A stretch of DNA of 42,980 bases from Candidatus Micrarchaeota archaeon (GCA_038046805.1 JBBSVO010000006.1:1-42980); one strand, 5' to 3'. Counted from the first letter of the stretch, positions 10,037-39,650 are shown. A program made the numbers and translations. Notes: generated by a model from the sequence alone, not told the origin.

Positions 10037-10059
10037 CCAGAATAAAACCAAGGCAAGCC

Positions 10060-13433: not shown

Positions 13434-13436
13434 TTT

Positions 13437-20155: not shown

Positions 20156-20339
20156 CGGGCCCGATGAGATTTGAACTCACGACCTTCACCTATGTCCATT
20201 ATACCCCTCCGACTTATGCTTCTCCAAGGTTTTGGGGGTGAAGCACTTTTGCCCCTGGGCTTCTGCAGTCAAAAGGGTTCTAGGACGGTGCCGCTCTTTT
20301 TGGTTTCTTTTTGAAATATCCAAGCTGAGCTACGGGCCC
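20156..20339 (-). tRNA. tRNA-Arg(CCT) with two introns: D-loop 20298-20317 (20 nt) and 37/38 20192-20280 (89 nt)
   Basis: GGGCCCG/CGGGCCC acceptor, G73, T-arm GTGAG-TTCAAAT-CTCAT; BHB TTGG/CCAA with ATA and AAA bulges; BHB GTCC/GGAC at the anticodon; TATA box 32 nt upstream. Confidence 0.85.
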
Positions 20340-20381
20340 AACAACTAGAAAATAAATATGGCAGAGGAGATATAAAAGTTG

Positions 20382-20409
20382 GTTTTCAGTTCTCCGTTTC
20401 CTGTTTTTC
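20382..20409. repeat. Heptamer array overlapping the glmU-like 3' end, next to the tRNA-Arg TATA box
   Basis: GTTTTCA GTTCTCC GTTTCCT GTTTTTC. Confidence 0.6.
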
Positions 20410-21684
20410 ATCCCCTTTCATCAAGTGCAATTCCTGCTTCACAAACACCTTTGTATTTGGAGGAATATTTTTGTTCACAACCACGTTTGAGCTTATCCAG
20501 CAATTCTCCCCGATTAATTTTCCGGGCATTGTGCAGGCAAGAACCCCGAACTTTGTATTATCTCCTACCACTGTACCGAACTTCTTTCTTCCGGTGTTCA
20601 CCCAGCCGCGTTCAGTGAGCACGTTTACGTTATCTGAATCAAACCTGAAATTTGCAATCTGGGTTCCAGAACCGAAATTCACGTCGCTTCCAATTATGCT
20701 GTCTCCGATATAAGAAAGGTGCTTCGCCTTAACATTATCAAACAGGATTGAGTTCTTTATTGTTGTTGCCCCGCCTATTTCGCAGTTCGCGCCTATCGAG
20801 TTGTTCCCCTTTAATATCGCGCCAGGACCAATTTTGCTTCCTGCACCGATATAGCTTGTTCCTTCAATATAGCTGTCAAACACCTCCGCGCCTTGTTCAA
20901 GGATTACTTTTCCGCGTATGGTTGAATTTTCAATTTTTCCGAGTGAAGTGTCTCCGTCATTGCGTGATAACAAATAATCATTTGCCTCAAAAAGATGCCA
21001 GGGATATCCAACGTCCATCCAGAATCCATCCACGGTAACTGCCTGTGCACCTATGAAAATATTCACTATTTCATATTCCCCGCGCTCTGATTTTGGAATC
21101 GTGCGGATTTCACTAAAAACAGTTTCGTCCATGCAATAAACAGAAAGATTTGCAAGATCGCTTTTCGGGTGTTGGGTTTTCTCTTCAAATAGTCTCACTG
21201 TTCCATTTTGATTAAGCTCAACAACTCCGTAAAGATGGGGATTTTTTACTTTTTTTACTGCGAGCGTTATTTTGTTTTTTGTTTTGCTGCTTTCGTTTTT
21301 ATGTGCATCAATTACTGCCTTAATTACGCTTGCCTCGGTTACAATATCTCCGGCAAGTGCAACAAAACAACCGCCGCTCTTTCCAACGATTTCCTTTTCC
21401 GCTGTAAGTATCGCCTCGCCGGTTCCGTTCTTTTCTGATTGCTCAACAAATTCGATTTTCATTCCGAGTTCCTTTTGGATTTCCGGTTTTCCGAAATATT
21501 CGATTATTTTCTCCTTTAGATATCGGACAACAATCACAACCTCGGTTATTCCTGCTTTCTTAACCTCGTGAAGAAGATGCCAGAGGATTGGTTTTCCCGC
21601 GACTTGCAGCATAACCTTTGGCCGTGTGTTCGTAAGCGGTTTGAGCCGCACGCCTTCCCCTGCTGCAAGAATGATTGCTTTCAT
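20386..21684 (-). CDS. glmU: Bifunctional sugar-1-phosphate nucleotidyltransferase / acetyltransferase (archaeal GlmU-like)
   Basis: ILAAGEGVRLKPLT..RPK, SERGEYEI, WMDVGYPW, hexapeptide beta-helix, HLSYIGDS, TGRKKFG. Confidence 0.88.
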   Translation of the reverse strand: MKAIILAAGEGVRLKPLTNTRPKVMLQVAGKPILWHLLHEVKKAGITEVVIVVRYLKEKIIEYFGKPEIQKELGMKIEFVEQSEKNGTGEAILTAEKEIVGKSGGCFVALAGDIVTEASVIKAVIDAHKNESSKTKNKITLAVKKVKNPHLYGVVELNQNGTVRLFEEKTQHPKSDLANLSVYCMDETVFSEIRTIPKSERGEYEIVNIFIGAQAVTVDGFWMDVGYPWHLFEANDYLLSRNDGDTSLGKIENSTIRGKVILEQGAEVFDSYIEGTSYIGAGSKIGPGAILKGNNSIGANCEIGGATTIKNSILFDNVKAKHLSYIGDSIIGSDVNFGSGTQIANFRFDSDNVNVLTERGWVNTGRKKFGTVVGDNTKFGVLACTMPGKLIGENCWISSNVVVNKNIPPNTKVFVKQELHLMKGDEKQETEN

Positions 21685-22244
21685 TGGTCTTCACCAGTGC
21701 TTTTTGTAGCATTACCATTATCTCCTGAAGGTTTTATGAAGTTTTTGACTCTTTCAACTATTCCATTGCTTGGGGACATCATATGAAGCGCCATTGTTAC
21801 GTGGCTCCCAAAGATTGTATTTGCAAGATACTTTACATCTAATAAAAATGCCTGTAGAACACCGAAAATCGTTAAAACTGTTGCGCCGCCCCTTACCATC
21901 ATCATCATTTTCGCACCAAGGTCAGATAAATCTGATTTATAAGTTTTAGACAGGCCCCACATGGCTAATCCTGCCAGAGCAAACGCACCAAGCTGACGCG
22001 GATTGATTGCAGAACCTGCAAGTACTCCAAAAATTATGCACCCCGTTGCTGCCTTTTCCCTTTTCCAACCATCTGTTTCCATGGTTTTAGCTAATCGTTC
22101 TGTACCTGCATGAATGAGATCATCTGTAAGAACCGCAATATTCAGGAATACCCCACGCGAAACCAATTCTTTTGCCAGGGTTGTTTTCTTGCCAGGGTCT
22201 GCAAAAATCGTTCTGAATGTAGCAACCTTTTCCCTAAACGTCAT
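21681..22244 (-). CDS. Hypothetical membrane protein
   Basis: 187 aa with 3-4 hydrophobic segments; ATGA overlap with glmU. Confidence 0.65.
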   Translation of the reverse strand: MTFREKVATFRTIFADPGKKTTLAKELVSRGVFLNIAVLTDDLIHAGTERLAKTMETDGWKREKAATGCIIFGVLAGSAINPRQLGAFALAGLAMWGLSKTYKSDLSDLGAKMMMMVRGGATVLTIFGVLQAFLLDVKYLANTIFGSHVTMALHMMSPSNGIVERVKNFIKPSGDNGNATKSTGEDQ

Positions 22245-22296
22245 AATCTGTATTTGTGTTAGATCTATTTAAAAAATGATTTAAACCAACTAATAG

Positions 22297-23658
22297 CTAA
22301 GCTCCCGATTCCTTCTCAATAACCTCAATCAATTCCCCTGCCTTTTTTTCTTGTTTCTCTTTTGTTCTATATTCCATCGTTAATCTCACATATGGTTCTG
22401 TCCCGCTCGCGCGGATAAGGAACCAGCCGTCCGGTTCATCAACGCGTATTCCGTCGTCAGTTCGGATTTTGCAGTTCGCTTTCGTACGGTTTTCTTTTTC
22501 TATCTTGTCCCGCACGCGATCCACGATTTTATATTTCTCCGAATTCGCGCATTCGAACTTCCCCCTGAGCATAAAATATGTCTTGTACTTATTCCGCAAT
22601 GCGCTCAGTTTTCCCTTTTCGCAGAAGATTTCAACGAATTTAGCTGCGGCAAGAATCCCGTCCGGTGCGTGGATTCCATTCGAGAATACGTATTCTCCAC
22701 ATGGTTCTCCTCCAAAAACAGCTTCGGTTCGTTCGAGTTCTTCCGAGACGTAAAGGCTTCCGACAGGGGTAACTAGCAACTCAGCACCTGCATTCTCGAC
22801 CGCTTCCCTGACACATAAGGATGCCTCAACAGTGGAAATGATTTTTTTCTTTCCTTTCACAGTCGTGCGGCTCAACTCATTTTCAATCATTATCGCAAGC
22901 TGCACATCCAATGGTAAGACTGTTCCTGTTTCATCAACAACAACTGTTCTGTCAGCATCTCCGTCATGTCCAATACCTAAATCAGCCTTGAGTTCCAGAA
23001 CCTTTGCCGCAAGTCCCTTTAGATTTTCCGCGTTAGGTTCGGATGGCCTGTCAAATCCGCGTAATCCGGAATTAATCGAAATAATCTCACATCCCATATC
23101 GCGCAGGAGGTCGGTGGTTATCACCGTACCCGCGCCGTTCGGATCTACAATTACTTTTGGTTTGCGTTTTCGTATTTTTTCCATATTTACGAGTTTGGTT
23201 ATCATCTTCTTATGTTCAGAAACAGCATTATCATATATTTCAAGTTTTCCAAGATTGTTCCATCTGGCAAGCAAAAGCGATTCCGTTCTATTATACATAG
23301 CTTCAACTTCTTTCTCTATTTTGCGGCTTATCTCAACTCCATTTGCAAATAGTTTCAGACCATTATACTCTGGCGGATTGTGAGATGCAGTAATCATTAT
23401 TCCATTGCATCTATTGTTCAGTGTAGCAAGCGCAAGTGTCGGAGTCGGAACAATTCCGCAATCTATTGCATTTCTTCCGGAAGAAAGTACTCCAGAAATA
23501 ACCGAGTTCGCAAGCGATTCACCGGTTGTTCTGGTATCCCTCCCGATAATGACGTCCTTTCCATATCCTGCGGCAAAGATATTCCCTATTCTCAGTGCAA
23601 GCTCTTCCGTAACAAAGCTTCCGTAAAGCCCGCGTATTCCGGATGTTCCAAAAAGCAT
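22297..23658 (-). CDS. glmM: Phosphoglucosamine mutase / phosphohexomutase
   Basis: LFGTSGIRG, ITASHNP, HDGDADR, GGE, RASGTEP. Confidence 0.9.
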   Translation of the reverse strand: MLFGTSGIRGLYGSFVTEELALRIGNIFAAGYGKDVIIGRDTRTTGESLANSVISGVLSSGRNAIDCGIVPTPTLALATLNNRCNGIMITASHNPPEYNGLKLFANGVEISRKIEKEVEAMYNRTESLLLARWNNLGKLEIYDNAVSEHKKMITKLVNMEKIRKRKPKVIVDPNGAGTVITTDLLRDMGCEIISINSGLRGFDRPSEPNAENLKGLAAKVLELKADLGIGHDGDADRTVVVDETGTVLPLDVQLAIMIENELSRTTVKGKKKIISTVEASLCVREAVENAGAELLVTPVGSLYVSEELERTEAVFGGEPCGEYVFSNGIHAPDGILAAAKFVEIFCEKGKLSALRNKYKTYFMLRGKFECANSEKYKIVDRVRDKIEKENRTKANCKIRTDDGIRVDEPDGWFLIRASGTEPYVRLTMEYRTKEKQEKKAGELIEVIEKESGA

Positions 23659-23688
23659 GTGATTATTTGTTCAGCAATATTTATTAGC

Positions 23689-23879
23689 TATAGCAAACCC
23701 GAAAAGTAATGTGTCAAGTAATTCGGGTTTGCTAGATATCATGAACGACAATTCGTTCATGAATATGCTCGTGACCGATGCGTCGGTCGCGACACTGCAA
23801 AACGCAAGATTTTTGTTGCAATACATTTGCGTTTTGCTGTATATCCGAATTCAGAAACCGTGCTAAGTTCGGGGTTGCT
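23689..23879. mobile_element. MITE-like cassette of stacked palindromes
   Basis: TAGCAAACCCGAA/TTCGGGTTTGCTA (23691-23734), CATGAACGA/TCGTTCATG, TCGTGACCGA/TCGGTCGCGA, GCAAAACGCAA/TTGCGTTTTGC, outer arm TTCGGGGTTGCT (23868-23879); left end resembles the 4271 element. Confidence 0.65.
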
Positions 23880-23974
23880 CTTAAGTTTTTGTGGTACATC
23901 ATCCTTATAAATATATTCTAACACAAATTAAAACATCATCAATCTGTTCGCAAAATTTAATGTTAGTGATATTC

Positions 23975-25603
23975 ATGCAAAAATTCTTTGATCAGGCAAA
24001 AGGGTGCGAAGTCCAGATGCCAAAATGGGTGGTTGCCGCAAGACAAGGGCTGGACAAGATGAACCGGCTTGCCTCAGCGCTACCTTTGGTCGAGGCGCTT
24101 CGCAGATCTTGCAGTATCTTTAATGGCTGTAAACTAAACGCCAACGTTATTCTGGATCCAGGAAAATCCAAGGAACGATTTTTTATAAATGGCCGAACCG
24201 AAAAGGAATGCTCATTTCTTGATTTTTTATTTATATTGGGCGTGCTGAGCAAGGGGGCGCCAATTGACGCAGTATACAATAAAAACACCAGTGACCTTGT
24301 CATGCTTGCCAACGAGAGAATCCCTGTCGTCATAAAAGAGCCAAAGAATGATTCACCGGCTGCATTTATCCGTTCATTAAATGATGCAATAATAGGTTAT
24401 CGAAAAACTTTACTTGAGATCAATTCCAGAACCTTTGCCACGACCGATGCAGGTTTTCCTGAAGTTGCTGATAGAAACGGACGCGCTGCTATTGTCAGTG
24501 CGCGCAGAGAAATGGAAGACGATGTTTCCTACGGGGCGGATATCTGCGTTGCGTTGGCGCTTCTCAGATCTGTCGCCTCCCGTCTTTCTCCGGAGGTTAG
24601 CCGTCTCCTTGCGGATTTTCTTGAGTATCCAAATACGCACATAGTGCAGGAATATGTATCCTTGTTGTCAGAAATCTCCCGCACAAGGGCAAAGGGTCGA
24701 GATTATATTCTTTCAGCGCTAAAATCCAAATTCGAAATCGCATGTCCGGATGCAGTTGAAATGCTTAAGTCACAATCAGCGGTGCCACCAAAAATCCACT
24801 CGGTAGGTTATATAGCCGAATCTGATAACCTGGTTCAACAACCTGTGGCACCAATTGTACGGACTGCCAGAGAGGATGAGGATTACATTAAGGCGAATTT
24901 TCCGCGCTTTTATCGCATGATGACCGGACCAACAGATGAAGAGCGTACACGAAGAGAATTCGGACACAGATTAAAAATGCTTATTCGTCATGGTGTGCCC
25001 TCCGTTTTCATAAAGCAATGCATTTCTGATGGGGTTCACGACATCGGTGCGATCGAGGAACGGTATACTTCCTTCCAATCCAGGGATCAGGACGCTGATA
25101 GCAGGATATTGTCGCCTGCAGAAGTTTTTCATCTTCCAATACCTGCATATACAATTTCTTCTCCCGAACGGGGCACAATCGAAATAATGCCCCGAGTAGT
25201 CTCCTATGATGATTTCCTTTCCGGAATCACATTCAGTGAGACTGTTCAAAAATACATTTCTGGGAATGGAAACGGTTTAACTTCAAAAGGCGTCGTGTTA
25301 TCCATTTGCAAAGGATTTGATTTTGGGAAGAAAAGCGGGGGTGCGGTTGGAGGGGCGCATTTCAGGGGCGCGATAATCAGGAATAACATACGAAGATGCG
25401 GCCTTGAGGCCGACAGGACATTGGCATTTCTTGATTCCCTTGACCTTATAATTCATCATGGCGGAAGCGCAAGAACAAAGGATGACGCAATGTCCATTAA
25501 TATCAATCCTGACAATGAACTTGGTAAAGAGATATTAAGGACAATAATCGATGCCCTTTTGGTGTCAAGATATTCAAAGGTTGGCACAACAAATGGAAAA
25601 TGA
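23975..25603 (+). CDS. Hypothetical protein
   Basis: Long ORF; ATG 23975 after GTGAT and downstream of TTATAAAT is more plausible than GTG 23891. Confidence 0.65.
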   Translation: MQKFFDQAKGCEVQMPKWVVAARQGLDKMNRLASALPLVEALRRSCSIFNGCKLNANVILDPGKSKERFFINGRTEKECSFLDFLFILGVLSKGAPIDAVYNKNTSDLVMLANERIPVVIKEPKNDSPAAFIRSLNDAIIGYRKTLLEINSRTFATTDAGFPEVADRNGRAAIVSARREMEDDVSYGADICVALALLRSVASRLSPEVSRLLADFLEYPNTHIVQEYVSLLSEISRTRAKGRDYILSALKSKFEIACPDAVEMLKSQSAVPPKIHSVGYIAESDNLVQQPVAPIVRTAREDEDYIKANFPRFYRMMTGPTDEERTRREFGHRLKMLIRHGVPSVFIKQCISDGVHDIGAIEERYTSFQSRDQDADSRILSPAEVFHLPIPAYTISSPERGTIEIMPRVVSYDDFLSGITFSETVQKYISGNGNGLTSKGVVLSICKGFDFGKKSGGAVGGAHFRGAIIRNNIRRCGLEADRTLAFLDSLDLIIHHGGSARTKDDAMSININPDNELGKEILRTIIDALLVSRYSKVGTTNGK

Positions 25604-26795
25604 GGGAAAACCAATCGTGAAGTCGGCAAGAGTACCGCCTCTGTTTGACCTTTGGTCAAATCTCTCGAAGTTCTTCGAACTTCTCGATGTTTCGCTGGCG
25701 GGTGAATTGCCGACCGACTTCACGAGTATTTTTCGAATGGGCGGGATACCGCGCCCTTGGGCGCGGTTCCTCTCCAGCAGGAGAGGACGCCCTTCGAAAA
25801 ATCTGATAGTATATTTCCAAATCTGGAGAATTGATCTGATGGTACACGCCAGTAAAGAGATTCCTCAAAAAACTGCAGAAACCAGAGCAAGAGAACCGAG
25901 GCGCACCAGGGTTCAGGCAGCATGGAATAATCCTGGTTTAGTGGACACATCCTCAAAGCAAGGGGCTGTATTAAGGCCAGAAGATGTGCACGCAATCCAA
26001 AAGCTTAGGGAAATCGGCGGGCTTACAATTGCCGTAGCCATGTCGAAAAGTATTGAGGATACGCGGGCTGCATCTTCGGATACAGAAATGGAAGCAGTTG
26101 CTACTGATTTTAGTCTCAAGATCCGCGAGTTGATTGATTATCTGGAGTCAAAACATCCAAACTATGGGCGGGTTTTAATGTGGCGGATGGAAGAATTAGG
26201 TTTGGATGAAATCGGAGAGAAACTTGGCGGTCTTTGCAGGGAACGCATAAGGCAGATCGAGGTAAATGCAAAGAGGTTCCTACGCGAAGACCTGGAATTG
26301 CGCGCGCTTGCAGAAGCTGCTGGAATAGATACAACTGCTTATTATCGCAATGTGGCATTCCTAAAAGAACTCGGTTTCAGTGACGCGTTCATCTCCCGCT
26401 GGGAAAAATATGGGTTTCCTTCTTCCGACCATCTCACGATCGCTGCGGTGTTTATTGCGGAAGCAGCCTATCCACATTGCGTCGCTGTCAACCATCAAGA
26501 CGCCGTAATTGAGCCCGGAAAAGACAGGTTGGATGAAGTTCGTTTTGCGAAGATACTCGCGAAAATAAATACATCTAAAATAGACGATTTATGCGAAGAA
26601 TTTGGAAAGGACATGGGCGAATTGATAGACAGATTGCAGAAATACTTTTCAAAATGCGTTGAAAGGGCGAAAGCCGCGCTAAGCCCCAAATCAATAGCCA
26701 AAGAATCGGAAAATCCCAAGCCAGAAATTCAAGCCGGAGATGGAAAACCACTAAATCCCCCGCAAACCCCAGGCGTTTCCGAGCAGTCTTCCTAA
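25593..26795 (+). CDS. Protein containing a sigma-70 region 4-type HTH
   Basis: RVLMWRMEELGLDEIGEKLGGLCRERIRQIEVNAKRFLR; start 25593 (coupled to upstream gene) or 25839 (GGAG RBS). Confidence 0.7.
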   Translation: MENEGKPIVKSARVPPLFDLWSNLSKFFELLDVSLAGELPTDFTSIFRMGGIPRPWARFLSSRRGRPSKNLIVYFQIWRIDLMVHASKEIPQKTAETRAREPRRTRVQAAWNNPGLVDTSSKQGAVLRPEDVHAIQKLREIGGLTIAVAMSKSIEDTRAASSDTEMEAVATDFSLKIRELIDYLESKHPNYGRVLMWRMEELGLDEIGEKLGGLCRERIRQIEVNAKRFLREDLELRALAEAAGIDTTAYYRNVAFLKELGFSDAFISRWEKYGFPSSDHLTIAAVFIAEAAYPHCVAVNHQDAVIEPGKDRLDEVRFAKILAKINTSKIDDLCEEFGKDMGELIDRLQKYFSKCVERAKAALSPKSIAKESENPKPEIQAGDGKPLNPPQTPGVSEQSS

Positions 26796-27890
26796 CGCGC
26801 CCGGGGTAATCATCCTCGTCGGCCTGTCCATGTGCCCGTGCTTTGATAAGAACCTCTCGAGTCCAGACGTCCTGAGTCTTGCACCCAATTGTTTTAGTTC
26901 TGCATCACTCTTGGCAGAAAGATAACGGTTCACAAACGAATGAATGAATAAATCCGCACCGAATTTTGCCCGCCATTTGATTTCATATCCAAGCGGATTA
27001 TCAAAATTCTCTCCGGCAATGCGTGCGCAATTTCCTCCTATTATTACTCCTCCACCAGTCGTGCTTTTTGTTTGTCCTGCCGCATCCCCAACTAACAAGA
27101 CGTTCTTTCCGTTCCTGCGCATCGCGGTTCTCTTTCTAGTTTCAATCGGAATAATTGCGCATTTAACCGTCGCGTGTCCGCCTTTGTTCCTTTCACCATT
27201 TATGTTTTTGTTCCGCACGATATTTTTCATTTTCAGGAGGAGATCTAGCGCATCCATCACGTTCGTTCCGCGATTTAGAATTTTTATTCCGCATCCGAAT
27301 TCTGCTTTCTCCTCATTGTGGGGAATGACCCAGCCAAAGAATCCGGGAAACATGGAATTCGAAAGAAATACTTCGACCATGTGTGGGTCTTCGGCCGCAT
27401 ATCGCACAGTAGTTTGCGCGGTTGCAACAAATTTTCCTATCTTCGGAAATCCAAAACTTCTCGCAACAAAAGAGTTTGGTCCATCCGCTCCGATAATATT
27501 ATCGGTTTTGAATCTGTCTACAATGCCGGTGCTTATCCGCTCGCCATATCTTATTTCCGCACCTTCCTTTTCTGCATTTTCAGCAATCCTTAAGTCAAGC
27601 AATGCCCGATTGCACACGTGTGCCACGGCATTTTTTCTTTTCACGGTTATTTTTTCACCGCACAAATCGATTACAGCACCACAAATATCATTAATCACAG
27701 TTCCACGATAATCAACATAATCTCGAAGTGTTTCCAATCCGTCAACAGAAAATAATCCAGAGCAATTGGCCGGAACTCCAACGCATTCATGTTCTTCAGA
27801 AATAGTTACCCTCGCGTTGTGCTTTCTTATCGCGCTTAACGCCGCAACACAGCCGGCCGGTCCGGCACCAATCACATGAAGGTCATGCAT
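26751..27890 (-). CDS. Geranylgeranyl reductase family FAD-dependent oxidoreductase
   Basis: VIGAGPAG, CSGL, IIGADG, PGFFGWVIP, LVGDAAGQ..STTGGG. Confidence 0.88.
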   Translation of the reverse strand: MHDLHVIGAGPAGCVAALSAIRKHNARVTISEEHECVGVPANCSGLFSVDGLETLRDYVDYRGTVINDICGAVIDLCGEKITVKRKNAVAHVCNRALLDLRIAENAEKEGAEIRYGERISTGIVDRFKTDNIIGADGPNSFVARSFGFPKIGKFVATAQTTVRYAAEDPHMVEVFLSNSMFPGFFGWVIPHNEEKAEFGCGIKILNRGTNVMDALDLLLKMKNIVRNKNINGERNKGGHATVKCAIIPIETRKRTAMRRNGKNVLLVGDAAGQTKSTTGGGVIIGGNCARIAGENFDNPLGYEIKWRAKFGADLFIHSFVNRYLSAKSDAELKQLGARLRTSGLERFLSKHGHMDRPTRMITPGALGRLLGNAWGLRGI

Positions 27891-30455: not shown

Positions 30456-30533
30456 AAATGCCACCAAATATAATTCGTTCGTAGTTGAGATTGGTATCGC
30501 ATTCTTTATTAATCTTATTTTCGTTATAGTCGC

Positions 30534-31648: not shown

Positions 31649-31938
31649 CAGACGAACGCAGAACAGGAGCGAAATTTTACACAGTTGAACCATGTGCCAG
31701 TTCCAATGCCTATGAAATAAAATTGCGGGACAAAAAAATAAATCTCGATCATGTGAATATTGGCGAAACGATTGCCAAAACTCCTGCAGTTCTGGTATCC
31801 AAATTCGAAAACTGTTCGCTAAGCATTTACGCAAGCGGAAGGATAATGATTAAAGGGATTGGCAAAGAGAAGGCTAATGCGGATTCGATTTCCGAAAAAA
31901 TAATTTCAGAATTGGAGTGTTCCGGTGCTTTGATATGA
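31645..31938 (+). CDS. Small protein resembling the TBP-like C-terminal domain of long MoeB/ThiF proteins
   Basis: GTGA overlap with the ThiF stop (alternative ATG 31630); SLSIYASGRIMIKG motif. Confidence 0.6.
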   Translation: MTDERRTGAKFYTVEPCASSNAYEIKLRDKKINLDHVNIGETIAKTPAVLVSKFENCSLSIYASGRIMIKGIGKEKANADSISEKIISELECSGALI

Positions 31939-32636: not shown

Positions 32637-32647
32637 ATTGCCATCCG

Positions 32648-32672
32648 AGTGAACTCACTTCATTCGTTCACT
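32648..32672. repeat. Tandem-GA hairpin downstream of tRNA-Met
   Basis: Minus strand AGTGAAC-GA-AT-GAA-GT-GA-GTTCACT. Confidence 0.55.
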
Positions 32673-32695
32673 TCTGTCATTTTTCTGAAGAAAAA

Positions 32696-32910
32696 TGCCA
32701 AGGGAGGGATTCGAACCCTCGGACCTCCAGATTTCTTAGAACGCACTAATTTATCATCGCCTTGCGGCTCATAACTCATATAGCTGTGCTTATGAGTCTG
32801 GCGCTCTACGCATATCAGAGCCTCGTGACTAGTGCTTCTTCAGGGCTTTTCGGTGAAGCGTTTTGCCCTTGGGTTTCAGTAGTCAAAAGGCTCAGCTGAG
32901 CTACCTTGGC
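32696..32910 (-). tRNA. Elongator tRNA-Met(CAT) with two introns: D-loop 32813-32893 (81 nt) and 37/38 32733-32790 (58 nt)
   Basis: GCCAAGG/CCTTGGC acceptor, A73, anticodon stem CCAGA/TCTGG, loop CT-CAT-A, T-arm GAGGG-TTCGAAT-CCCTC; D-loop BHB TCAG/CTGA; relaxed anticodon BHB CTCA/TAAG. Confidence 0.8.
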
Positions 32911-32968
32911 AAACGAGCATGAGCGAGTTTGCTTAGGTTTATTGGCAGCAGCCAATCAAACCTTGGCA
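32903..32968. repeat. 9-bp direct repeat of the tRNA-Met 5' end flanking two hairpins
   Basis: ACCTTGGCA at 32903-32911 and 32960-32968. Confidence 0.65.
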
Positions 32969-33061
32969 GATAACTAAATACTTTTCTGTCCCGTTTCGTT
33001 TTAAACTATTGAGGATTGCATTCCAAAACCTTTATAAACACGCTTTGTTACAATATATAAC

Positions 33062-34174
33062 ATGAGTAACCTTAGATTTAAGACTAAATTTCAAGTTGCA
33101 ATGGTTTGCTCTGCGGCAATGCTTTCATCATTCGTTTTTGTCAAACCTGTTTCCGAAGAACTTAAATCAGGAAATGCAAAGGCCGGACAGTTTTTATCAG
33201 AGCTGAAAACTGATCGCATGAGTGAAAGATATGCTCATGTCGGGCAGGCAGGTGGTCCGGATCATTGGATTGCAAGAAGTAGAGTTGCGAACGGCATGAG
33301 TAGTGCAGACAGGGCCAATTTAGAATATTCTAAGATATGCCCAGTAATACGGTCTGGTGATCTAAGAGCTGATGGCACCAACGTGATGTTTCGTGCAGTT
33401 AACCCAGAGAAGCAGGATAGCCTGGGAAAAGCGACATCCAGAACAGCAAAACTTTGCAGATCGTTGTCTGATTCAGCTTTACAGGATTTAGAAACAAAAT
33501 ATACTCTCTTCCTACAAAGGGTTTCCGAGGAGGAAAATAACATTGCGCAAGCGGAAGTAAATGCCACGGCATCGATTTCTGCTCATGACCAAGAACATTC
33601 GCGTTACACCGGAGAATTGCTTTTGGCCGCGGTTGAAACCTTTTTGGCAGGTGCATTCGCATTTTTCTTTTCAAATCCGCTTTCCCGATTATTCGCAAGG
33701 AGAAGGGAAGATGACGGGAAAAAATCAGGAGGACTGAAAGGTGTTCGTGTTCTGGACCAGTTCGAAGAGGTAGGGATTGTTGTTCCAATAAGAACCGATA
33801 ATGCAAGTGGATTTTGCAATTCAAGCCCTATGGCAGGAATAGTGACGACCGGAAATGCGGCAGTTATTCCGATTTCGTTAACAGTTCGGTCTACCCAACG
33901 TATCAAACGTCCAGAAAAATCACCAGAAGAAAAAGGTAGGGGCGCCATCGCCGCCATTTTCGGGGCAGAACGTGTAGATAAGATGATTGAAATCATAGAA
34001 TTGGTTGAGCCTGGAGCGGAAATAGTCGCGCGTTTGGGTAAAGCTCGCAATCCAGTGAAAACCGCAAAAATCTGGTTTAAGGCCAGCCGAACTGTCAACT
34101 GCTACGGGTCATATGTTGGGAATTGGTATTTTGAAGCTCTTGGGATTAACAGAGAAGAAGGCGCATCAAGATGA
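33062..34174 (+). CDS. Hypothetical membrane protein
   Basis: 370 aa, N-terminal hydrophobic segment and internal TM; TTTATAAA box upstream, likely leaderless. Confidence 0.65.
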   Translation: MSNLRFKTKFQVAMVCSAAMLSSFVFVKPVSEELKSGNAKAGQFLSELKTDRMSERYAHVGQAGGPDHWIARSRVANGMSSADRANLEYSKICPVIRSGDLRADGTNVMFRAVNPEKQDSLGKATSRTAKLCRSLSDSALQDLETKYTLFLQRVSEEENNIAQAEVNATASISAHDQEHSRYTGELLLAAVETFLAGAFAFFFSNPLSRLFARRREDDGKKSGGLKGVRVLDQFEEVGIVVPIRTDNASGFCNSSPMAGIVTTGNAAVIPISLTVRSTQRIKRPEKSPEEKGRGAIAAIFGAERVDKMIEIIELVEPGAEIVARLGKARNPVKTAKIWFKASRTVNCYGSYVGNWYFEALGINREEGASR

Positions 34175-34836
34175 AATTCTGCGAGATCGGAGTTTACCAC
34201 CATGACTGCTGGTTTACGGATGCAATAACCAGATTTCCTGAGATGTCTATAAGGGAAACAAGCTCACGAGTTTGCAATTCTGATTCTGGAATAAAAGTCA
34301 ACAAGGCAAGCTACAGGATATCCTCTCAGGATGAGATGATGTTGCACGATTTTTTGAGCCGCATTTCGCAGGGTGGAAGGATTTTGGAGGCGAAAACCCT
34401 AAGTATTACCGGCAATTCTGCAATTATCGAAGTTTCCTGGAAAGCCGCCCGGACCTCATACGATTCAGTTCTTGGAAGCGGATGTTCTGTTACTTCTTCA
34501 TGCTATGCCAAGGATGGATACGAAACATATTCGATGTTCGCGGAAAAGCCAACGGACATAAAAAAACTTCTTGATGAGCTAGAGCAGATTGGTGAAACAA
34601 AAATATTCTCGATCAAAAACTCGGCAGTTTCAAAACAGAGTTTCGGCCTCACACCAAAGCAAAGGCATGCATTGGTCTCCGCGATTTCAATGGGATATTA
34701 CGAATGGCCAAAGAAAGCTAATCTCGAGGAGCTTGCTGCGAAACTCGGTGTAAAACGCAGGACGTTGCAGGAAAACCTGAGAAAGGCAGAGAGCAAACTT
34801 CTTCCGAAATTGCTGGACGAACTTTCGGCGGATTAG
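34171..34836 (+). CDS. Bat/HTH_10-type archaeal transcriptional regulator
   Basis: N-terminal HHDCW and C-terminal LTPKQRHALVSAISMGYYEWPKKANLEELAAKLGVKRRTLQENLRKAESKL. Confidence 0.88.
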   Translation: MKFCEIGVYHHDCWFTDAITRFPEMSIRETSSRVCNSDSGIKVNKASYRISSQDEMMLHDFLSRISQGGRILEAKTLSITGNSAIIEVSWKAARTSYDSVLGSGCSVTSSCYAKDGYETYSMFAEKPTDIKKLLDELEQIGETKIFSIKNSAVSKQSFGLTPKQRHALVSAISMGYYEWPKKANLEELAAKLGVKRRTLQENLRKAESKLLPKLLDELSAD

Positions 34837-35522
34837 GAATCGGGTTCCCGCATCTTAAGAATTAATTCCAGATGCTTCTGAAAAATTCTGTTGTCAATAC
34901 GCCCATAAACTCCCTGCAAATTGTCCTTGAATTGTTTGTTTGAAACCTTTTCCCATATCTTTTCGTATTGTTTACTAAAGTTGAGCCTTAGCCCAATCTC
35001 GTTTCTTACCCATCCAAAATCCTTTATTGCGGTTGCCATCATAAAGATGTCCCGCATGTCAGTTGTTCTTGCACGTATGAATTTCATGGCAAATAATGCA
35101 TCAGCACCGATTATCCTCGCGCTTATTTTTTCTGACATTGTTTTCCCAATAATGGTTCTTTTTGATGAATTTCCGAATATCCAGTTCGCATCAAACGAGA
35201 CTCCGGTTTGCCTGTCGGTTACCTTATCAATCATTATATCCACGCTCGCGTGGATATTCTCTGCAACTTGTTTCTCAAACCTGGAAAACTCTCCATGGTA
35301 TGGTACTAACGCGTTGCTTTCCACGGCAACGTAGCCTTCATTTTTCAGCACTCTTTCCACATCCGGCACGTCCTTTTTTCTTATGACGATGTCACAATCT
35401 TCTGAAAATCTTGGCAAGGCATAGGAATTGACGGCATATCCTCCTATCAATACGAATTCTATTTCACCGAGCCTTTTGAGAACTCTGAAGATTTCGGTTT
35501 CACGCAGTTGCATTCTGTCCAT
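34833..35522 (-). CDS. Nucleotidyltransferase, AbiEii-like (type IV TA toxin)
   Basis: FVLIGGYAV...RFSEDCDI, VDI, LFAMKF..RTTDMRD. Confidence 0.75.
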   Translation of the reverse strand: MDRMQLRETEIFRVLKRLGEIEFVLIGGYAVNSYALPRFSEDCDIVIRKKDVPDVERVLKNEGYVAVESNALVPYHGEFSRFEKQVAENIHASVDIMIDKVTDRQTGVSFDANWIFGNSSKRTIIGKTMSEKISARIIGADALFAMKFIRARTTDMRDIFMMATAIKDFGWVRNEIGLRLNFSKQYEKIWEKVSNKQFKDNLQGVYGRIDNRIFQKHLELILKMREPDS

Positions 35523-36105
35523 AGTTTTCCCTCATATAATTATAGGCGTATTCGTATAACTCATTTTTCCCGGCATTCTCCATCGTTTCGTTCAATGGCT
35601 CAACCTTCAAATTATCCTTTATCTTCCACGCCACTCTTCGCACAGGGATTAATACCACAAACTCGCCAATTGTCGTGCCTTCTTTTTCATATACCTGTAT
35701 TTCCTGCGCTGCAAAAAATCCTTTCCAGTATCTAATATCCTTTTCCAATACCTTCACAAAATACGGGGAACGCTTTATATCCCGCTGGACATAAGAATAG
35801 TCGCTCCACACTTCTATCGCGGATAAACCAGTAAAACAATAGTCTCTTCCCGCAGTTTTCATTATCTCCGGAACCCTGAAATCCAATAAATGGGAGAATA
35901 TCTCATTTGGCTTGTTGCACACATACGCATTTCGGCTTTTCTTCTTTATCCAGCCAGAACTTAATAATATGGAAAAAATCTTTTTTTTCATTGGTTGGGA
36001 AACTACCCAATCCAATTCTGACTGCTTGAACTGTCTTATAGTGCCGAAGCGGGTGTAGAACAATGCGTATGCCCTTAAACAATATTGTGGTATATCTCTA
36101 TACAT
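35500..36105 (-). CDS. wHTH antitoxin/regulator, AbiEi-like
   Basis: N-terminal wHTH (LLSSGWIKKKSRNAY), YCFTGLSA; overlaps the nucleotidyltransferase start. Confidence 0.65.
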   Translation of the reverse strand: MYRDIPQYCLRAYALFYTRFGTIRQFKQSELDWVVSQPMKKKIFSILLSSGWIKKKSRNAYVCNKPNEIFSHLLDFRVPEIMKTAGRDYCFTGLSAIEVWSDYSYVQRDIKRSPYFVKVLEKDIRYWKGFFAAQEIQVYEKEGTTIGEFVVLIPVRRVAWKIKDNLKVEPLNETMENAGKNELYEYAYNYMRENYGQNATA

Positions 36106-36125
36106 AGTTACCTATTAGGTAACTA
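36105..36125. promoter_or_regulatory. Perfect 21-bp palindromic operator at the antitoxin start
   Basis: TAGTTACCTA-T-TAGGTAACTA, between the ATG (36105) and the TTTTAAAAA box. Confidence 0.75.
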
Positions 36126-36150
36126 ACATTTTAAAAATGTTTGGGAAAGC

Positions 36151-36164
36151 ATGACATTTGTCAT
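36151..36164. promoter_or_regulatory. Palindromic site upstream of the Cys-rich gene
   Basis: ATGACA-TT-TGTCAT just upstream of a TATA-like ATTATATT. Confidence 0.45.
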
Positions 36165-36200
36165 CTAATCATTATATTTGCAAGGTAACGCGTTATTACC

Positions 36201-37820
36201 ATGGAATCCACAGGAACCTATTCCGAACTCAACAACCAATGGAAAAGCACCTGCCGACTTTTGTTAGGCACGGACGTCGGAGAGCTTGCTGACTACAAGG
36301 ATTGGCTGATGGAGCTGAACAACCCGCGTTTCGTGCGGAAATCATCTGTTTCCGAAAATGAAGTCGCATTCGCGAGCAGTGAGTTCTGCGATTCTGCGAA
36401 ATTTATTGGAATGGGCGAGATTGACTTTAATAAAAAATTTGAGACGCTGACCATTAATGAGATAAAAGACATCGACTCTTTGCTTGGGTCGCTAAGTGAG
36501 CGGTTCTCCTACTGCGGAAATATCATTCTTGGAAACTCGAAATTCGTTGAAAAAAGCTCGAATGTCTCGAATAGTTTTTTCGTTTTGGATTCAGTGAAGA
36601 TTGACAGCTGCAAGAACATCGCATATTCTCAGTATCTTCGCCTGTGTGAAAACGTATTCGGAACCAACGAAGGCGGGGAAGGCAGGTTCTGCATTCGATG
36701 CAGTATCCTTTTCAAAAACACCCGTTGCTTTGAGCTGTGGAACAGCCCAGTTTGCTCGGATTCTTATTATTCTTATGGATTGGAAAACTGTCGCGAGGCA
36801 TTCTTTTCATTTAATGCTGTCGGAAAAAGCCACCTAATCGGGAATCTTACGCTTCCAAAGGATAAATATCTTGCAATAAAGCAGAAGTTACTGTTTGAAA
36901 TTTCGGAACGGCTCATTCGTGACAAGAGGCTTCCGTCGCTTATGGGCTTAATCACAGGAGCCGAACCGAATTATAAAGAAGCTACTGCGGCGTTGGGCGG
37001 AACTACAAATACGGAAATTCCGAAGGATAAGAAAATCATCAGCGATTCATTCTCAAAAACATCCGCGCTTATTTTCGGAAAGCCGCTTTCCGGAGATATT
37101 GATGATTACGCAGAATGGCTCAGTGCGCATGTTGTTGTGCCGCATACGATTCCATCTGTCTTAAGCGGCAAGCCGGTTCCAATGTCAAAATGGCCTGGCC
37201 TTTCGCAGATTCCCCCAAATCGTGTTGTCACTTACTCGGAAGCGTTAGAGCTTGCGGAAAAATTACAGATGTCCGAACAGGATGCAGAACAAATTTCACT
37301 CAATTCCGCTCCGCACACGCTCGGAAGAATCGCATACTTCACCCCAGAGCACATGGTCGGTACAAATGATAATCTTATAGAGTGCCAATGGGGCAGTACA
37401 GCTGCAAACTGTTATCGCTCGGTCATCTGCGTTTATAGCAAAAATTGTGCCTATTCTTCATGGCCAAGAAGCTCAGAGTACCTGTTCGGATGCGGAATAG
37501 TTTTTGAATCCGGATTTTCAATGAAATGTTATGATTCGGTCAAACTCACAAGATGTCTTGAGGTTGATGGAGGAAGAGATTGTGCGGATACGTACTTCTC
37601 ACACAACGTCGAAGGTCTGTCTCAGTGCGCATTCTGTTTCAATACAAAAAGCAAGCGTTACGCAGTAGGAAATGCAGAAATCGGGCAGGATAAATTCGCG
37701 GGGTTCAAAAAGATGATTCAGGAATGGGCAATAGACGAACTGGAAAGGAAGAAAAAGGTTGGATTAAGCATATATGATATTGGGTGCATGGTAAACCAAT
37801 TCCAAAACCCAAGACACTAG
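36201..37820 (+). CDS. Cys/Ser-rich repeat (beta-solenoid-like) protein with internal duplication
   Basis: Halves align: STCRLLLGTDVGELADYKDWL vs KTSALIFGKPLSGDIDDYAEWL; FFSFNAVGKSHLIGN vs AFCFNTKSKRYAVGN; periodic Cys. Confidence 0.75.
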   Translation: MESTGTYSELNNQWKSTCRLLLGTDVGELADYKDWLMELNNPRFVRKSSVSENEVAFASSEFCDSAKFIGMGEIDFNKKFETLTINEIKDIDSLLGSLSERFSYCGNIILGNSKFVEKSSNVSNSFFVLDSVKIDSCKNIAYSQYLRLCENVFGTNEGGEGRFCIRCSILFKNTRCFELWNSPVCSDSYYSYGLENCREAFFSFNAVGKSHLIGNLTLPKDKYLAIKQKLLFEISERLIRDKRLPSLMGLITGAEPNYKEATAALGGTTNTEIPKDKKIISDSFSKTSALIFGKPLSGDIDDYAEWLSAHVVVPHTIPSVLSGKPVPMSKWPGLSQIPPNRVVTYSEALELAEKLQMSEQDAEQISLNSAPHTLGRIAYFTPEHMVGTNDNLIECQWGSTAANCYRSVICVYSKNCAYSSWPRSSEYLFGCGIVFESGFSMKCYDSVKLTRCLEVDGGRDCADTYFSHNVEGLSQCAFCFNTKSKRYAVGNAEIGQDKFAGFKKMIQEWAIDELERKKKVGLSIYDIGCMVNQFQNPRH

Positions 37821-37829
37821 ACACAAAAC
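37802..37829 (-). repeat. Heptamer array just 3' of tRNA-Phe
   Basis: Minus strand GTTTTGT GTCTAGT GTCTTGG GTTTTGG. Confidence 0.65.
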
Positions 37830-37835
37830 AATAAT

Positions 37836-38085
37836 TGCCACGTGCCTGATTTGAACAAGCGACCCCACCGTATCAGCGTTTCGAGTTTTCAGTTCCGGGT
37901 CTTGGTGGTTAAAAAACAAGACCAATTGAAATTCGAGTGAATTTCAATGGTCCATTGAACGGTGTAGTTCAATTGGACACTAGACTTATGACTCGATACT
38001 CTTCAGCGGTGTGCTCTCCCAGTTGCTGCGCCATGCGCGGCAAATCATGAACGATTTGTCGTTCATAGCTCTGAGCTAACGTGGC
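37836..38085 (-). tRNA. tRNA-Phe(GAA) with two introns: D-loop about 38023-38070 (48 nt) and 37/38 37872-38000 (129 nt)
   Basis: GCCACGT/ACGTGGC acceptor, A73, CACCG/CGGTG stem, loop CT-GAA-G, T-arm GCTTG-TTCAAAT-CAGGC; both BHB motifs relaxed; TATA box about 30 nt upstream. Confidence 0.82.
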
Positions 38086-38134
38086 TTAGTAAGTTTATTT
38101 CATTGTGGAAAGATTATAAAAACCATTACTCCCC

Positions 38135-39484
38135 TCATTTCGTCAAACCGCCCAGATTCTTTAATCCTTCTATTCCACCGCCCTGCATCATCCTTTCCAT
38201 CTGCTTTCTGAATCCGCGGTTCTTCTTGAACATGTTCATCATTTTGTGCATTTTTTCAAATTGCGACAGGAATTCCCGCACATCCTTAATTTCGCAGCCG
38301 CTCCCGCGAGCTACACGTTCGAGTCGCGTGCGGTTCTTTCTCAACAATCCCGCATCTTTCTTCTCTGCTTTTGTCATTGAATTTATCATTGCCTCGTATT
38401 TCTTTAGTTTCCCCTCGCTTTGCTGGACAATCTCCTTCGGAACATCCGCGGCTCCAAGCATTGAAAATACTCCGGAAAGTGGTCCCAATTTCTTCGCTGC
38501 CTTAAGCTGCTCATAAAATGTTTCAATAGTGAGTTCGTCCATTTCGGTTCCAGTACCGAGCTTCTTCATGTCATGTTCTTCTGAAATTTTCTTTACTTTT
38601 TCCATTAATCCCGCGATATCTGGAACTCCGAGCAGTCTTCCAACGAATTTGTTTGAATCATAAATTTCAAAGTCATCCATCTTTTCTCCTGTTCCGATAA
38701 ATGCAATGTTTGTTCCGCTTGCTGCAACTGCTGAAAGCGCACCACCGCCCTTTCCGCTTCCATCCATTTTAGTTGCAATTACCCCGCTTAATTTCACTGC
38801 ACGATTAAATTCTTCAGCTTGTTTTCCTGCGACCTGGCCAACATCCCCGCTGATAACAAGGTAAGTTTCATCCGGATTTAACGCGTTATTCATTCCCTGC
38901 AATTCCTCTGTCAATTTTTCATCAAACGCGCTTCTTCCGGCAGAATCAACAATCAGGATATCTTCTTTGCTCTTAGTCAGTGCATCCTCAACAATTCTTC
39001 GCGCACTGTGTTCTCCCTCTATAGTATAATATCTGACATTGATCTGCTTTGCAATCTGCTCAAGCTGTTCCTGCGCAGCAGGTCTGTCTACATCTGCTCC
39101 AACAAGCCCGACACTCATCCCACGTGATTTGTAAAAATATGCGATCTTTCCTGCCGATGTCGTTTTTCCGCTTCCAAAAAGTCCGCAAAGAAGAATCTGG
39201 TGTTTGTCCAGTTTTGGAGAATAACTTTTCCCCATCAGCGCAACCAGCTCGTCAAAAACTATCTTCATCACGTGTTCCTTCAGGCTAAGCGCAGAAATTT
39301 TCTCAGTCTTAAGAGTTTTTTCCTCGATCCTTTTTGAAAGTTCGAAAACCAGTTTCACATTAACATCCGAAGAAATCAGAACGCGTTGCAAATCCTTTAT
39401 CATGGCTCGCACTGCATCTTCATCAACATAAGGCCTGTTGGTAAGCTTGGCAAGCGTTTCACGAAGTCCTTTTCCAAGATCCAT
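38135..39484 (-). CDS. ffh: Signal recognition particle protein SRP54
   Basis: SSDVN, GLFGSGKTT, DVDRPAA, DSAGR, TKMDGSGKGG, Met-rich M domain with RVARGSG. Confidence 0.96.
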   Translation of the reverse strand: MDLGKGLRETLAKLTNRPYVDEDAVRAMIKDLQRVLISSDVNVKLVFELSKRIEEKTLKTEKISALSLKEHVMKIVFDELVALMGKSYSPKLDKHQILLCGLFGSGKTTSAGKIAYFYKSRGMSVGLVGADVDRPAAQEQLEQIAKQINVRYYTIEGEHSARRIVEDALTKSKEDILIVDSAGRSAFDEKLTEELQGMNNALNPDETYLVISGDVGQVAGKQAEEFNRAVKLSGVIATKMDGSGKGGGALSAVAASGTNIAFIGTGEKMDDFEIYDSNKFVGRLLGVPDIAGLMEKVKKISEEHDMKKLGTGTEMDELTIETFYEQLKAAKKLGPLSGVFSMLGAADVPKEIVQQSEGKLKKYEAMINSMTKAEKKDAGLLRKNRTRLERVARGSGCEIKDVREFLSQFEKMHKMMNMFKKNRGFRKQMERMMQGGGIEGLKNLGGLTK

Positions 39485-39511
39485 TGATTTCCCATAGTCG
39501 CGTAGTGCGGC

Positions 39512-39539
39512 TCAAAACCAGATACACAAAACGCGGAAC
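39512..39539 (-). repeat. Heptamer array just 3' of tRNA-Arg(TCG)
   Basis: Minus strand GTTCCGC GTTTTGT GTATCTG GTTTTGA. Confidence 0.6.
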
Positions 39540-39552
39540 AATAATAATTAAT

Positions 39553-39650
39553 CGGGCCCGGCAGGATTCGAACCCACAACCGCCTCGTCACTCCTGCAAT
39601 CAGGAGAGTGCATCCGAAGCGAGGCGCGCTATCCGTTGCGCTACGGGCCC
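39553..39650 (-). tRNA. tRNA-Arg(TCG) with a 25-nt canonical intron (39589-39613)
   Basis: GGGCCCG acceptor, G73, CCTCG/CGAGG stem, loop CT-TCG-G; BHB CTTC/GGAG with GGA and TGA bulges; intron stem TGCA/TGCA. Confidence 0.92.

Follow-up and report, generated by a model that had tools for sequence, protein, structure and literature searches.

How archaeal tRNA genes gain introns is an open question, and in Thermoproteales transposition has been inferred without a donor element or a mechanism. The stretch of DNA analysed here (42,980 nt, hereafter the window), from the genome of a Candidatus Micrarchaeota archaeon, contains four tRNA genes that are all interrupted, which raises the question of what these inserts are and how they arrived. 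According to the initial annotation, tRNA introns are neutral insertion sites, or sinks, for a set of miniature palindromic elements; our results support this view only in part, and we propose three layers instead. We consider it likely that the seven inserts are archaeal tRNA introns of the BHB type and predicted substrates of an epsilon2 EndA, that most of them come from short non-coding families that turn over between sister species, by gain, loss or replacement, and that likely copy themselves between RNA genes, and that the anticodon intron of Met is conserved and predicted to act as a methylation guide for its own C34.

All four genes lie on the minus strand, and their intron borders were set by BHB geometry. 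The tRNA-Arg(CCT) gene (20156..20339; mature tRNA 75 nt) has a 20-nt intron at 20a/21 (20298..20317), with all four pairs of the central helix formed, and an 89-nt intron at 37/38 (20192..20280), which is a copy of the element family E with its core at 20204-20278. The elongator tRNA-Met(CAT) gene (32696..32910; mature tRNA 76 nt; wobble C34 at 32794), whose tRNA has an odd G18-C19, carries an 81-nt intron at 17/17a (32813..32893), another copy of family E (core 32821-32892), and a 58-nt intron at 37/38 (32733..32790), a predicted half box C/D methylation guide. The tRNA-Phe(GAA) gene (37836..38085; mature tRNA 73 nt) is split at 15/16 by 48 nt (38023..38070) and at 37/38 by 129 nt (37872..38000); in the latter, heptamer arms close a long and imperfect hairpin that encloses a double-palindrome unit (37926-37972). 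The tRNA-Arg(TCG) gene (39553..39650; mature tRNA 73 nt) has one intron, at 37/38 (39589..39613; 25 nt), with a strict BHB and no repeat content. The central 4-bp helix of the BHB is complete in four introns, has three of its four pairs in two, and has only two of four in Phe 37/38, the flanking helices of that junction being in register. When the introns were removed in silico, all four products (73-76 nt) were called by ARAGORN as tRNAs with the stated anticodons, so the initial reading of seven introns of 20-129 nt, one in Arg-TCG and a D-loop plus a 37/38 intron in each of the other genes, stands.

Default ARAGORN called none of the four window genes, and at low threshold it returned 735 calls, mostly false. 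Rfam models recovered Arg-TCG as the sole tRNA gene of the window, and only 4 of the 39 tRNA genes of the genome passed the Rfam cut-off; PSSM scans gained little over reference-guided spliced alignment. No group I or group II ribozyme core was matched by Rfam in the window, the inserts being 20-129 nt long. One metatranscriptome (32% of sampled words), from a library that may include DNA, gave contigs over 20 of 30 bins, with a depth that was low and flat; the Met gene was mostly uncovered, and no joint was seen inside any tRNA. That the genes are pseudogenes or assembly artefacts is scarcely credible. G32 and the G27.A43 mismatch in Arg-CCT, G18-C19 in Met and the weak Phe 37/38 helix would fit such a reading, but the odd bases, G32 and G27.A43 among them, are common to the congener, stems show compensatory pair changes, as between this Phe gene and the congener's syntenic Phe, and genome searches found no intact second copies.

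Genome-wide, 38 of the 39 tRNA genes found are interrupted (97% of those found, in a genome that is 86% complete); the part of a 2011 survey available to us gives at most 87%. In this 86% complete genome, genes for tRNA-Asn, His, Glu-CTC and Arg-CCG were not found when searched with their own references, and those for iMet, Ser-GGA and Leu-CAG were not found by general scans. The initial annotation had expected a broad-specificity splicing endonuclease. The genome has a single EndA gene (393 aa), which matches the ARMAN-2 EndA (4FZ2) over its full length (E-value 2e-137) and retains K161, Y236, H251, K282, R275 and W384; typed as epsilon2, it is, as judged by homology, an EndA of broad specificity.

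The 70-nt element shared by Arg-CCT intron 2 and Met intron 1 (79% identity over 66 nt, E-value 2e-7) had been regarded as an intergenic repeat that lands in introns. On the contrary, it is almost confined to introns of RNA genes and always lies in sense orientation. Of its 19 matches in the genome, 16 fall within tRNA introns, without exception in sense orientation, and they occupy D-loop, anticodon and T-arm sites, although the profile, built from 10 intron copies, is biased toward intron copies. Members of the family are interrupted hairpins of ~70 nt in which a T-tract and two A-tracts covary; 90% of the cells in the helices are paired, with 14 double-sided changes, and none of 500 shuffles scored as high. 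The family also occurs in tRNA introns of three other genera. From metagenomes, 80 of 98 loci were returned and, after removal of 4 duplicates, 76 distinct loci were examined: 40 were called inside a sense tRNA and none inside an antisense one, about 12 more were assigned to tRNAs and about 5 to rRNA-like genes by eye, and about 9 represent a variant outside RNA genes. Family E has no relevant match in Rfam and none among the viral contigs searched; its helices cross, a layout that might suggest an HDV-like ribozyme fold. It is an intron family in its own right, not an intergenic repeat, and it most likely moves through RNA, because it is always sense and lies almost only in tRNA or rRNA-like genes. 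No mobilising enzyme emerged: the ends of IS200/605 elements look unlike family E by eye, and the genome's single reverse transcriptase, considered as a mobiliser, spans two reading frames and falls under every NCBIfam cut-off.

In the explanation that we prefer, the first layer would consist of two intron-forming families, E and H, the latter made of paired arms with a 7-nt period, and a new copy of either would be tolerated in a tRNA wherever its ends and the exon fold as a relaxed BHB. An excised E intron may be reverse-spliced by EndA and a ligase into another structured RNA, and DNA copying or gene conversion would complete the move. Outside tRNAs, three E copies have direct duplications of 10-17 nt or more on their flanks; these point toward an insertion at the level of DNA and away from simple reverse splicing. 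More tentatively, and with clearly less than even chances, family E may be a protein-free retro-intron of DPANN archaea that is able to spread by itself: its 70-nt RNA, built on a three-stranded core, would use the epsilon2 EndA and the ligase of the host to reverse-splice into structured RNAs such as tRNA and rRNA, would return to DNA by copying, and would have driven one lineage to near-total saturation of its tRNAs with introns, with a second tier of palindromic passengers. If true, this would offer a direct and tractable model for the origin and movement of archaeal BHB introns.

Gain and loss were followed in one congener, in which 19 of the 39 genes were recovered as orthologues; Arg-TCG was left out because its copy there is unreadable. 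Five of the six comparable window introns are absent or replaced. Arg-CCT has no intron at 20a/21 in the congener, which instead has a 40-nt intron at 17/17a, and holds a different 94-nt sequence at 37/38 (47% identity). At Met 17/17a there is a 78-nt heptamer-arm intron (58% identity, with shuffled pairs reaching up to 62%), the Phe 15/16 intron is missing, and Phe 37/38 holds 14 nt; the Met 37/38 intron is 85% identical. By our own tally over the 19 orthologous genes, 14 of 42 intron sites are occupied in one genome only and 16 of 28 shared sites hold sequences less than 70% identical, while the exons differ at 0-5 positions in 17 aligned genes. Introns thus vary strongly, rather than being invariant, in this one close relative. 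Twelve shared-site introns are nevertheless 74-100% identical between host and congener, against 54% identity at four-fold degenerate sites (465/858), a degree of conservation beyond that expected under free drift.

The same comparison bears on an account that needs no autonomous mobile family, in which tRNA hairpins locally give rise to inserts through replication slippage and template switching, and gene conversion then spreads these among similar tRNA genes. The congener's Met and Arg-CCT anticodon introns, at whose ends the 3' exon is duplicated over 18 nt and 12 nt, respectively, and an inverted copy is added, agree with it, as do the nearly identical anticodon introns of its Thr-CGT and Thr-TGT genes and the resemblance of H arms to slipped 7-nt repeats. 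We nonetheless regard it as improbable, given that E sits at varied positions within tRNAs, is found in isoacceptors that are unrelated, and extends to other genera and to rRNA-like genes, and that its flanks lack homology for conversion.

The second layer of the preferred explanation would be formed by passengers, here called P: palindromes of 20 nt and double palindromes of ~50-60 nt that are common between genes. The palindrome ATGAACGA is present at 38047-38066 in Phe intron 1 and, in the intergenic copy, at 23741-23760, within a cluster of further hairpins (about 23680-23800). Heptamer arms occur in Phe intron 2 and in intergenic runs at 1..63 and 39694..39728, the latter in the leader of tRNA-Arg(TCG), with further runs outside introns at 20382-20409 and 37802-37829. 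Across the genome there are 44 P-type palindromes (1-4 in five Markov shuffles) and 94 heptamer runs of at least 4 units (0-1 in three shuffles). Their density is 1.71 per kb in introns versus 0.21 in intergenic DNA for P and 3.2 versus 0.37 for H, which makes both 8-9 times denser in introns; two repeat families are therefore common to introns and intergenic DNA genome-wide, in agreement with the initial annotation. In a filled/empty pair at Lys-CTT, the same E intron is 83 nt long when empty and 141 nt long when it holds a 58-nt double palindrome, which shows that P units insert into hairpin loops of pre-existing introns, with which they would also be removed. As to P being a MITE, this pair shows no target-site duplication, just a 2-nt ambiguity, and we identified no cognate transposase element. 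P differs by eye from the ends of the genome's own TnpA and TnpB elements, to which the comparison with IS200/605 was confined, and one P unit is located inside the leader of the genome's IS200 TnpA. Duplicated tRNA 3' ends around palindromes are seen in the host genome and in relatives.

The third layer is a resident intron with a putative function, the Met 37/38 intron. Its motif (32752..32780, minus strand) comprises a guide, TATGAGTT (32780-32773), a D' box ATGA (32772-32769), a GC hairpin (32768-32759) and a C' box GATGATA (32758-32752). The guide, only 8 nt long, pairs with tRNA positions 30-37, C34 being the partner of the fifth base 5' of D', and the boxes are of a kind that can fold as a K-turn or K-loop. 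A pattern search for Met across the order gave 48 hits, 12 of which were dropped because no tRNA 3' exon followed; the guide layout is present in 35 of the 36 anticodon introns counted and in 17 of 7200 shuffled introns. The D' box of the guide-bearing introns is ATGA in 22, CTGA in 8 and another sequence in 5. The hairpins between D' and C' vary freely, and the G at D'+5 is kept, this G being part of the search pattern that defines the guide and hence not independent of it. A second antisense stretch (32738..32744, minus strand) is complementary to positions 21-27 of the same tRNA, and pairing with positions 21-28 reaches at least 7 pairs in 19 of the 35 introns; the Met intron has a single clear box pair instead of a terminal C/D pair together with an internal C'/D' pair, and the second antisense has no clear partner C box. 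Fibrillarin and L7Ae-family genes are present in the genome, and L7Ae, Nop5 and fibrillarin may assemble on the intron and 2'-O-methylate C34, as would follow from the D+5 rule. On these sequence features we predict that the Met 37/38 intron is a conserved guide for C34 of its own tRNA; since it is conserved order-wide with the guide layout, it is not neutral.

The tandem-GA hairpin, formerly listed as a recurring mobile part, is this conserved C'/D' motif; a motif scan so strict that it missed the Met copy itself gave two unrelated hits in the genome and none in the window. The description of the larger introns as mosaics of recurring parts accordingly keeps the shared 70-nt element, the palindrome and the heptamer arms, and loses the tandem-GA hairpin.

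In its full form, the neutral model holds that the larger introns are all passive landing sites for miniature palindromic DNA elements that are otherwise intergenic. It gains from P and H, which lie far above shuffles both in introns and between genes and are densest in introns, from the Lys-CTT pair and from the high turnover of sites. However, E is nearly missing from intergenic DNA and takes only the sense orientation in tRNAs, conservation of the Met anticodon intron extends across the order, and twelve shared introns exceed the 54% neutral baseline. E and the Met guide already contradict the model, and we give it little chance as a whole; it fits small palindromes nested in existing introns best, and fails for the 70-nt element, the Met 37/38 intron and the twelve well-kept introns.

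Selection for host defence, by changing introns that break the tRNA attachment sites of integrating viruses and plasmids, is very unlikely. Integration usually uses the 3' half of tRNA genes, and many introns lie in the D-loop, outside that half; a genome of the same family has introns in only 7 of the 35 tRNA genes extracted, and such selection would account for the retention of introns, not their origin. It would be in line with the near-total intron saturation, with the duplicated 3' ends around palindromes in the host and its relatives, and with a proposal published for ARMAN in the part of PMC3488258 available to us.

With a recognisable family that has filled and empty sites in sister species, non-tRNA copies and nested passengers, intron gain becomes testable, and a selected functional intron (the predicted Cm34 guide) can be told apart from a fast-turnover intron within one gene. 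In genomes of this kind almost all tRNAs escape standard tools, so that MAG quality and genetic-code surveys are distorted.

Among known systems, transposed introns of Thermoproteales (Fujishima et al. 2010 and Sugahara et al. 2008, as summarised in the accessible portions of PMC4033280 and PMC3239211) include similar sequences in different tRNAs and positions, multi-intron genes and a broad-specificity EndA. Our genome is alike in having related introns at different positions of different tRNAs (family E, 16 introns) and in having gained or lost introns relative to a close relative (14 of 42 sites filled in a single genome), but it differs in its DPANN host and epsilon2 EndA, in nested mosaic introns of up to 205 nt, the longest here (the review, where available, describes tRNA introns of <100 nt), in copies outside tRNA genes with target duplications, and in the interruption of 38 of 39 genes. 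ARMAN-2 (Ca. Micrarchaeum acidiphilum) shares the phylum, the EndA type with ASL lysine and catalytic triad, and relaxed BHBs at non-canonical sites, whereas 56% of its genes are disrupted, compared with 97% of those found here, and the sections consulted of PMC3239211 and PMC3488258 describe 13-25-nt introns and no repeat families. In the available text of PMC3293823, tRNA-Thr of Caldiarchaeum has likewise gained an intron rapidly, as seen among close relatives, and shows duplicated tRNA fragments, but that gain is linked to an integrating, recombinase-coding element of 1.8 kb, while no coding element is attached here. The P units resemble SMR-A/PATEs of Haloquadratum walsbyi, as far as PMC3119063 was accessible, in being short, transposase-free and palindromic, in nesting inside other elements, in having terminal inverted repeats unrelated to known transposon ends and in lacking target duplication; unlike SMR-A (about 110 bp), they are 20-60 nt long and nested in tRNA introns, the likeness being one of description rather than of compared sequences. 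Our literature search, which covered few subscription journals, turned up no report of tRNA introns derived from repeats in Micrarchaeota, nor of a guide in a Met intron that targets its own tRNA.

For the Met intron, sR-tMet of Haloferax is reportedly a free-standing guide. Known counterparts, in the parts of the sources available, are this sR-tMet (Joardar 2011, as cited in PMC6601510), the tRNA-Trp intron that guides Cm34/Um39 (PMC7994747), and the elongator tRNA-Met of Nanoarchaeum equitans, with a C/D-like sRNA in a 66-nt intron, the target of which is not named there (PMC3491384). As in N. equitans, a box motif and a GC hairpin lie inside the Met anticodon intron, and C34 of elongator tRNA-Met is a known target of box C/D systems. 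Unlike the known guides, so far as these sources describe them, the intron predicted here combines one box pair with a guide to the host tRNA's own C34, a layout kept in 35 of the 36 introns counted across the order.

The four tRNA genes of the window all lie on the minus strand and are all interrupted, with seven introns among them, as the initial annotation had claimed. With default settings ARAGORN called none in the window, while Rfam matched one. Borders were set by bulge-helix-bulge (BHB) geometry, which places introns of 20 nt (20a/21) and 89 nt (37/38) in Arg-CCT, 81 nt (17/17a) and 58 nt (37/38) in Met, 48 nt (15/16) and 129 nt (37/38) in Phe, and 25 nt (37/38) in Arg-TCG. The central helix pairs at 4/4 positions in four introns, 3/4 in two and 2/4 in Phe 37/38, and ARAGORN recognized all four in-silico spliced products as tRNAs. 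The unusual bases G32 and G27.A43 of Arg-CCT and G18-C19 of Met are also present in the congener G001, and are therefore not errors.

The BHB-flanked introns would be spliced out of the pre-tRNAs; the single RNA run examined was uninformative on splicing. The splicing endonuclease (EndA) is encoded by one gene of 393 aa, which matches the ARMAN-2 EndA (4FZ2) over its full length (E 2e-137) and retains K161 as the ASL lysine, Y236/H251/K282 as the triad, and also R275 and W384, all residues taken from PMC3488258. Judged by this match and these residues, it is an epsilon2-type enzyme, a type described in PMC3239211 as demonstrated to cleave relaxed BHB motifs. Nearly all EndA relatives found were Ca. 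Micrarchaeota records.

The window is the beginning of contig C6 of a 1.2 Mb, 86% complete genome. Spliced alignment against the tRNAs of a same-family genome recovered 38 complete tRNA genes, plus Ala-GGC with its 3' end unplaced (contig C4, 76270-75990; two introns, 3' end not contiguous); seven expected genes were not found. Interruption affects 38 of the 39 genes found, Ser-GCT being the sole intronless one, and the introns number about 65 and sum to about 4.7 kb (borders beyond the window are approximate). According to a 2011 survey, 56% of ARMAN-2 tRNA genes are interrupted, and up to 87% elsewhere (PMC3239211). The heavy load is lineage-specific: across 31 genomes, Rfam matches between 2 and 63 tRNAs per genome (a low count may stem in part from tRNAs missing from the assembly), and introns occur in just 7 of 35 tRNA genes extracted from the same-family genome G014.

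Much of this intron sequence belongs to families. The shared element of about 70 nt, E, was profiled from 10 intron copies and has 19 genome matches, 16 of which lie in tRNA introns, all in sense orientation, at D-loop, anticodon and T-arm positions; the other three lie in two clusters flanked by direct duplications, one of them following a T-loop-like GTTCAA. A stricter pattern matches 5 of 31 genomes; in three other genera, the copies that were read sit inside tRNA introns or immediately 3' of a tRNA. In metagenomes, 40 of 76 distinct loci were called within a tRNA in sense orientation and 0 in antisense; judged by eye, the others comprise about 12 more tRNA loci, about five rRNA-like loci and about nine that form a variant lying away from RNA genes, while the remainder resemble chance matches. 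By eye, E occurs in sense inside 16S-rRNA-like sequence in metagenome contigs L238, L268, L298 and L299. Viral contigs gave no match to E.

The fold of E is an interrupted hairpin, and its first A-tract makes a further pairing, with the 5' T-tract; in these helices 90% of cells are paired, with 14 double-sided changes (equalled by 0 of 500 shuffles), figures that relatedness can inflate. The two A-tracts mirror each other, and the base preceding the T-tract covaries with that following the A-tract (T-A 9, C-G 8, C-C 4), which fits a putative three-stranded core. Two more families share this T-tract/A-tract/A-tract plan with longer or different tracts, in the T-loop introns of Asp, Leu-CAA, Tyr and Cys and in Arg-TCT and Ser-CGA (contigs C3, C6, C7 and C9). 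Other introns are formed by H, paired arms of 7-nt period that also occur singly in intergenic DNA; H runs number 15 in introns (3.2 per kb, both arms of one intron counted separately), 45 in intergenic DNA (0.37 per kb) and 34 in ORF-masked DNA, vs 0-1 in shuffles.

The 20-nt palindromes and double palindromes, P, number 44 genome-wide vs 1-4 in shuffles; eight of them lie within introns (1.71 per kb), 25 between genes (0.21 per kb) and 11 in ORF-masked DNA. Insertion is nested: the E intron of Lys-CTT exists in two forms, one filled with a 58-nt double palindrome and one empty, and the Phe 37/38 intron consists of H arms enclosing a double-palindrome unit. P differs by eye from the ends of the host TnpA and TnpB elements and is found inside the TnpA leader; it probably inserts at the DNA level, and recalls the SMR-A repeats of Haloquadratum as described in PMC3119063. 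The initial annotation was right in its observation, and even understated it; its interpretation of tRNA introns as neutral insertion sites for miniature palindromic elements shared with intergenic DNA is right in part, being reasonable for P and failing for the Met 37/38 intron, a predicted guide.

Other features were also noted. An IS200/IS605-type element (window 9860-11215) carries an intact-looking TnpB (10060-11208, NF040570 above cut-off), and its ends resemble those of a stand-alone TnpA element on contig C3. A further hairpin repeat with TAGCAAACC arms lies at 23680-23705, 4272-4341 and elsewhere in the genome. Near-copies, at 82-92% identity, of about 110 nt from the start (25699-25807) of ORF 25551-26795 occur at other places in the genome and in G001. 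Downstream of several tRNAs in the host and relatives, palindromes are surrounded by duplicates of tRNA 3' ends (contig C6 130140-130260; loci L161, L102 and L109), like miniature att-site integrations. A short ORF at 13258-13434, under the 70-aa cut-off, resembles RNA polymerase subunit K/omega by eye.

Comparison with G001 (protein 87% identical; four-fold sites 54%, 465/858 in seven window genes) revealed rapid turnover. The 19 tRNA genes compared as orthologues have 42 intron sites, of which 14 are occupied in one genome only; among the 28 that are shared, identity is 74-100% at 12 and below 70% at 16, vs exon differences of 0-5 positions (17 genes, automatic alignment). G001 has no intron at Arg-CCT 20a/21 or Phe 15/16 and carries other sequences at the 37/38 sites of Arg-CCT and Phe and at Met 17/17a, leaving Met 37/38 (85%) as the only conserved one of the six window introns compared, those of Arg-CCT, Met and Phe. 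The T-loop intron of tRNA-Lys-TTT (contig C9 12453-12250; 130 nt) belongs to no repeat family; at 85% identity in G001 it resembles the Met intron in conservation, and could be another intron RNA with a function. The exons of the window Phe gene (37836-38085) show many compensatory stem changes against the syntenic G001 gene, far beyond other tRNAs, and its T-arm matches that of the host tRNA-Tyr; conversion or replacement is possible.

E probably moves by an RNA-mediated route. However, a route purely through RNA is at odds with the direct duplications beside the non-tRNA copies of E and with the 12-18-nt exon duplications within the Met and Arg-CCT introns of G001. No mobilising enzyme was identified in the host genome, whose sole RT (locus L206 460-1718, contig C11) is split over two overlapping frames, with the break near a G-run and with about 125 nt between its end and the 3' end of tRNA-Gly(CCC). 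Its AAC-rich 5' region may point to a diversity-generating retroelement.

In the Met 37/38 intron, a predicted guide (TATGAGTT) is followed by a D' box, a GC hairpin and a C' box. Its tandem-GA hairpin, previously regarded as a mobile repeat part, is instead the centre of this layout, which is conserved in 35 of 36 Met anticodon introns (the Met genes with such an intron among 48 pattern hits examined) vs 17 of 7200 shuffled introns, while the hairpins vary freely in sequence and length. Positions 30-37 of the intron's own tRNA-Met pair with the guide, so that C34 faces the fifth base 5' of D', and in part of the Met intron set a second stretch is antisense to positions 21-28. Because there is just one clear box pair, the intron is predicted to be a half guide for C34 methylation, and Cm34 would be formed on tRNA-Met; genes for fibrillarin and the L7Ae family were found in the host genome. 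C34 of archaeal elongator tRNA-Met is described as a box C/D target in PMC6601510.

In literature searches, no precedent was found for near-total saturation, long nested introns, a family with copies outside tRNAs, or site-by-site intron replacement between sister species. Transposition of introns is already known, as are multi-intron tRNAs that depend on an epsilon2 enzyme. For the guide, the account in PMC3491384 of a C/D-like RNA in the 66-nt Met intron of N. equitans names no target, and the tRNA-Trp intron is described as a self-guide in PMC7994747.
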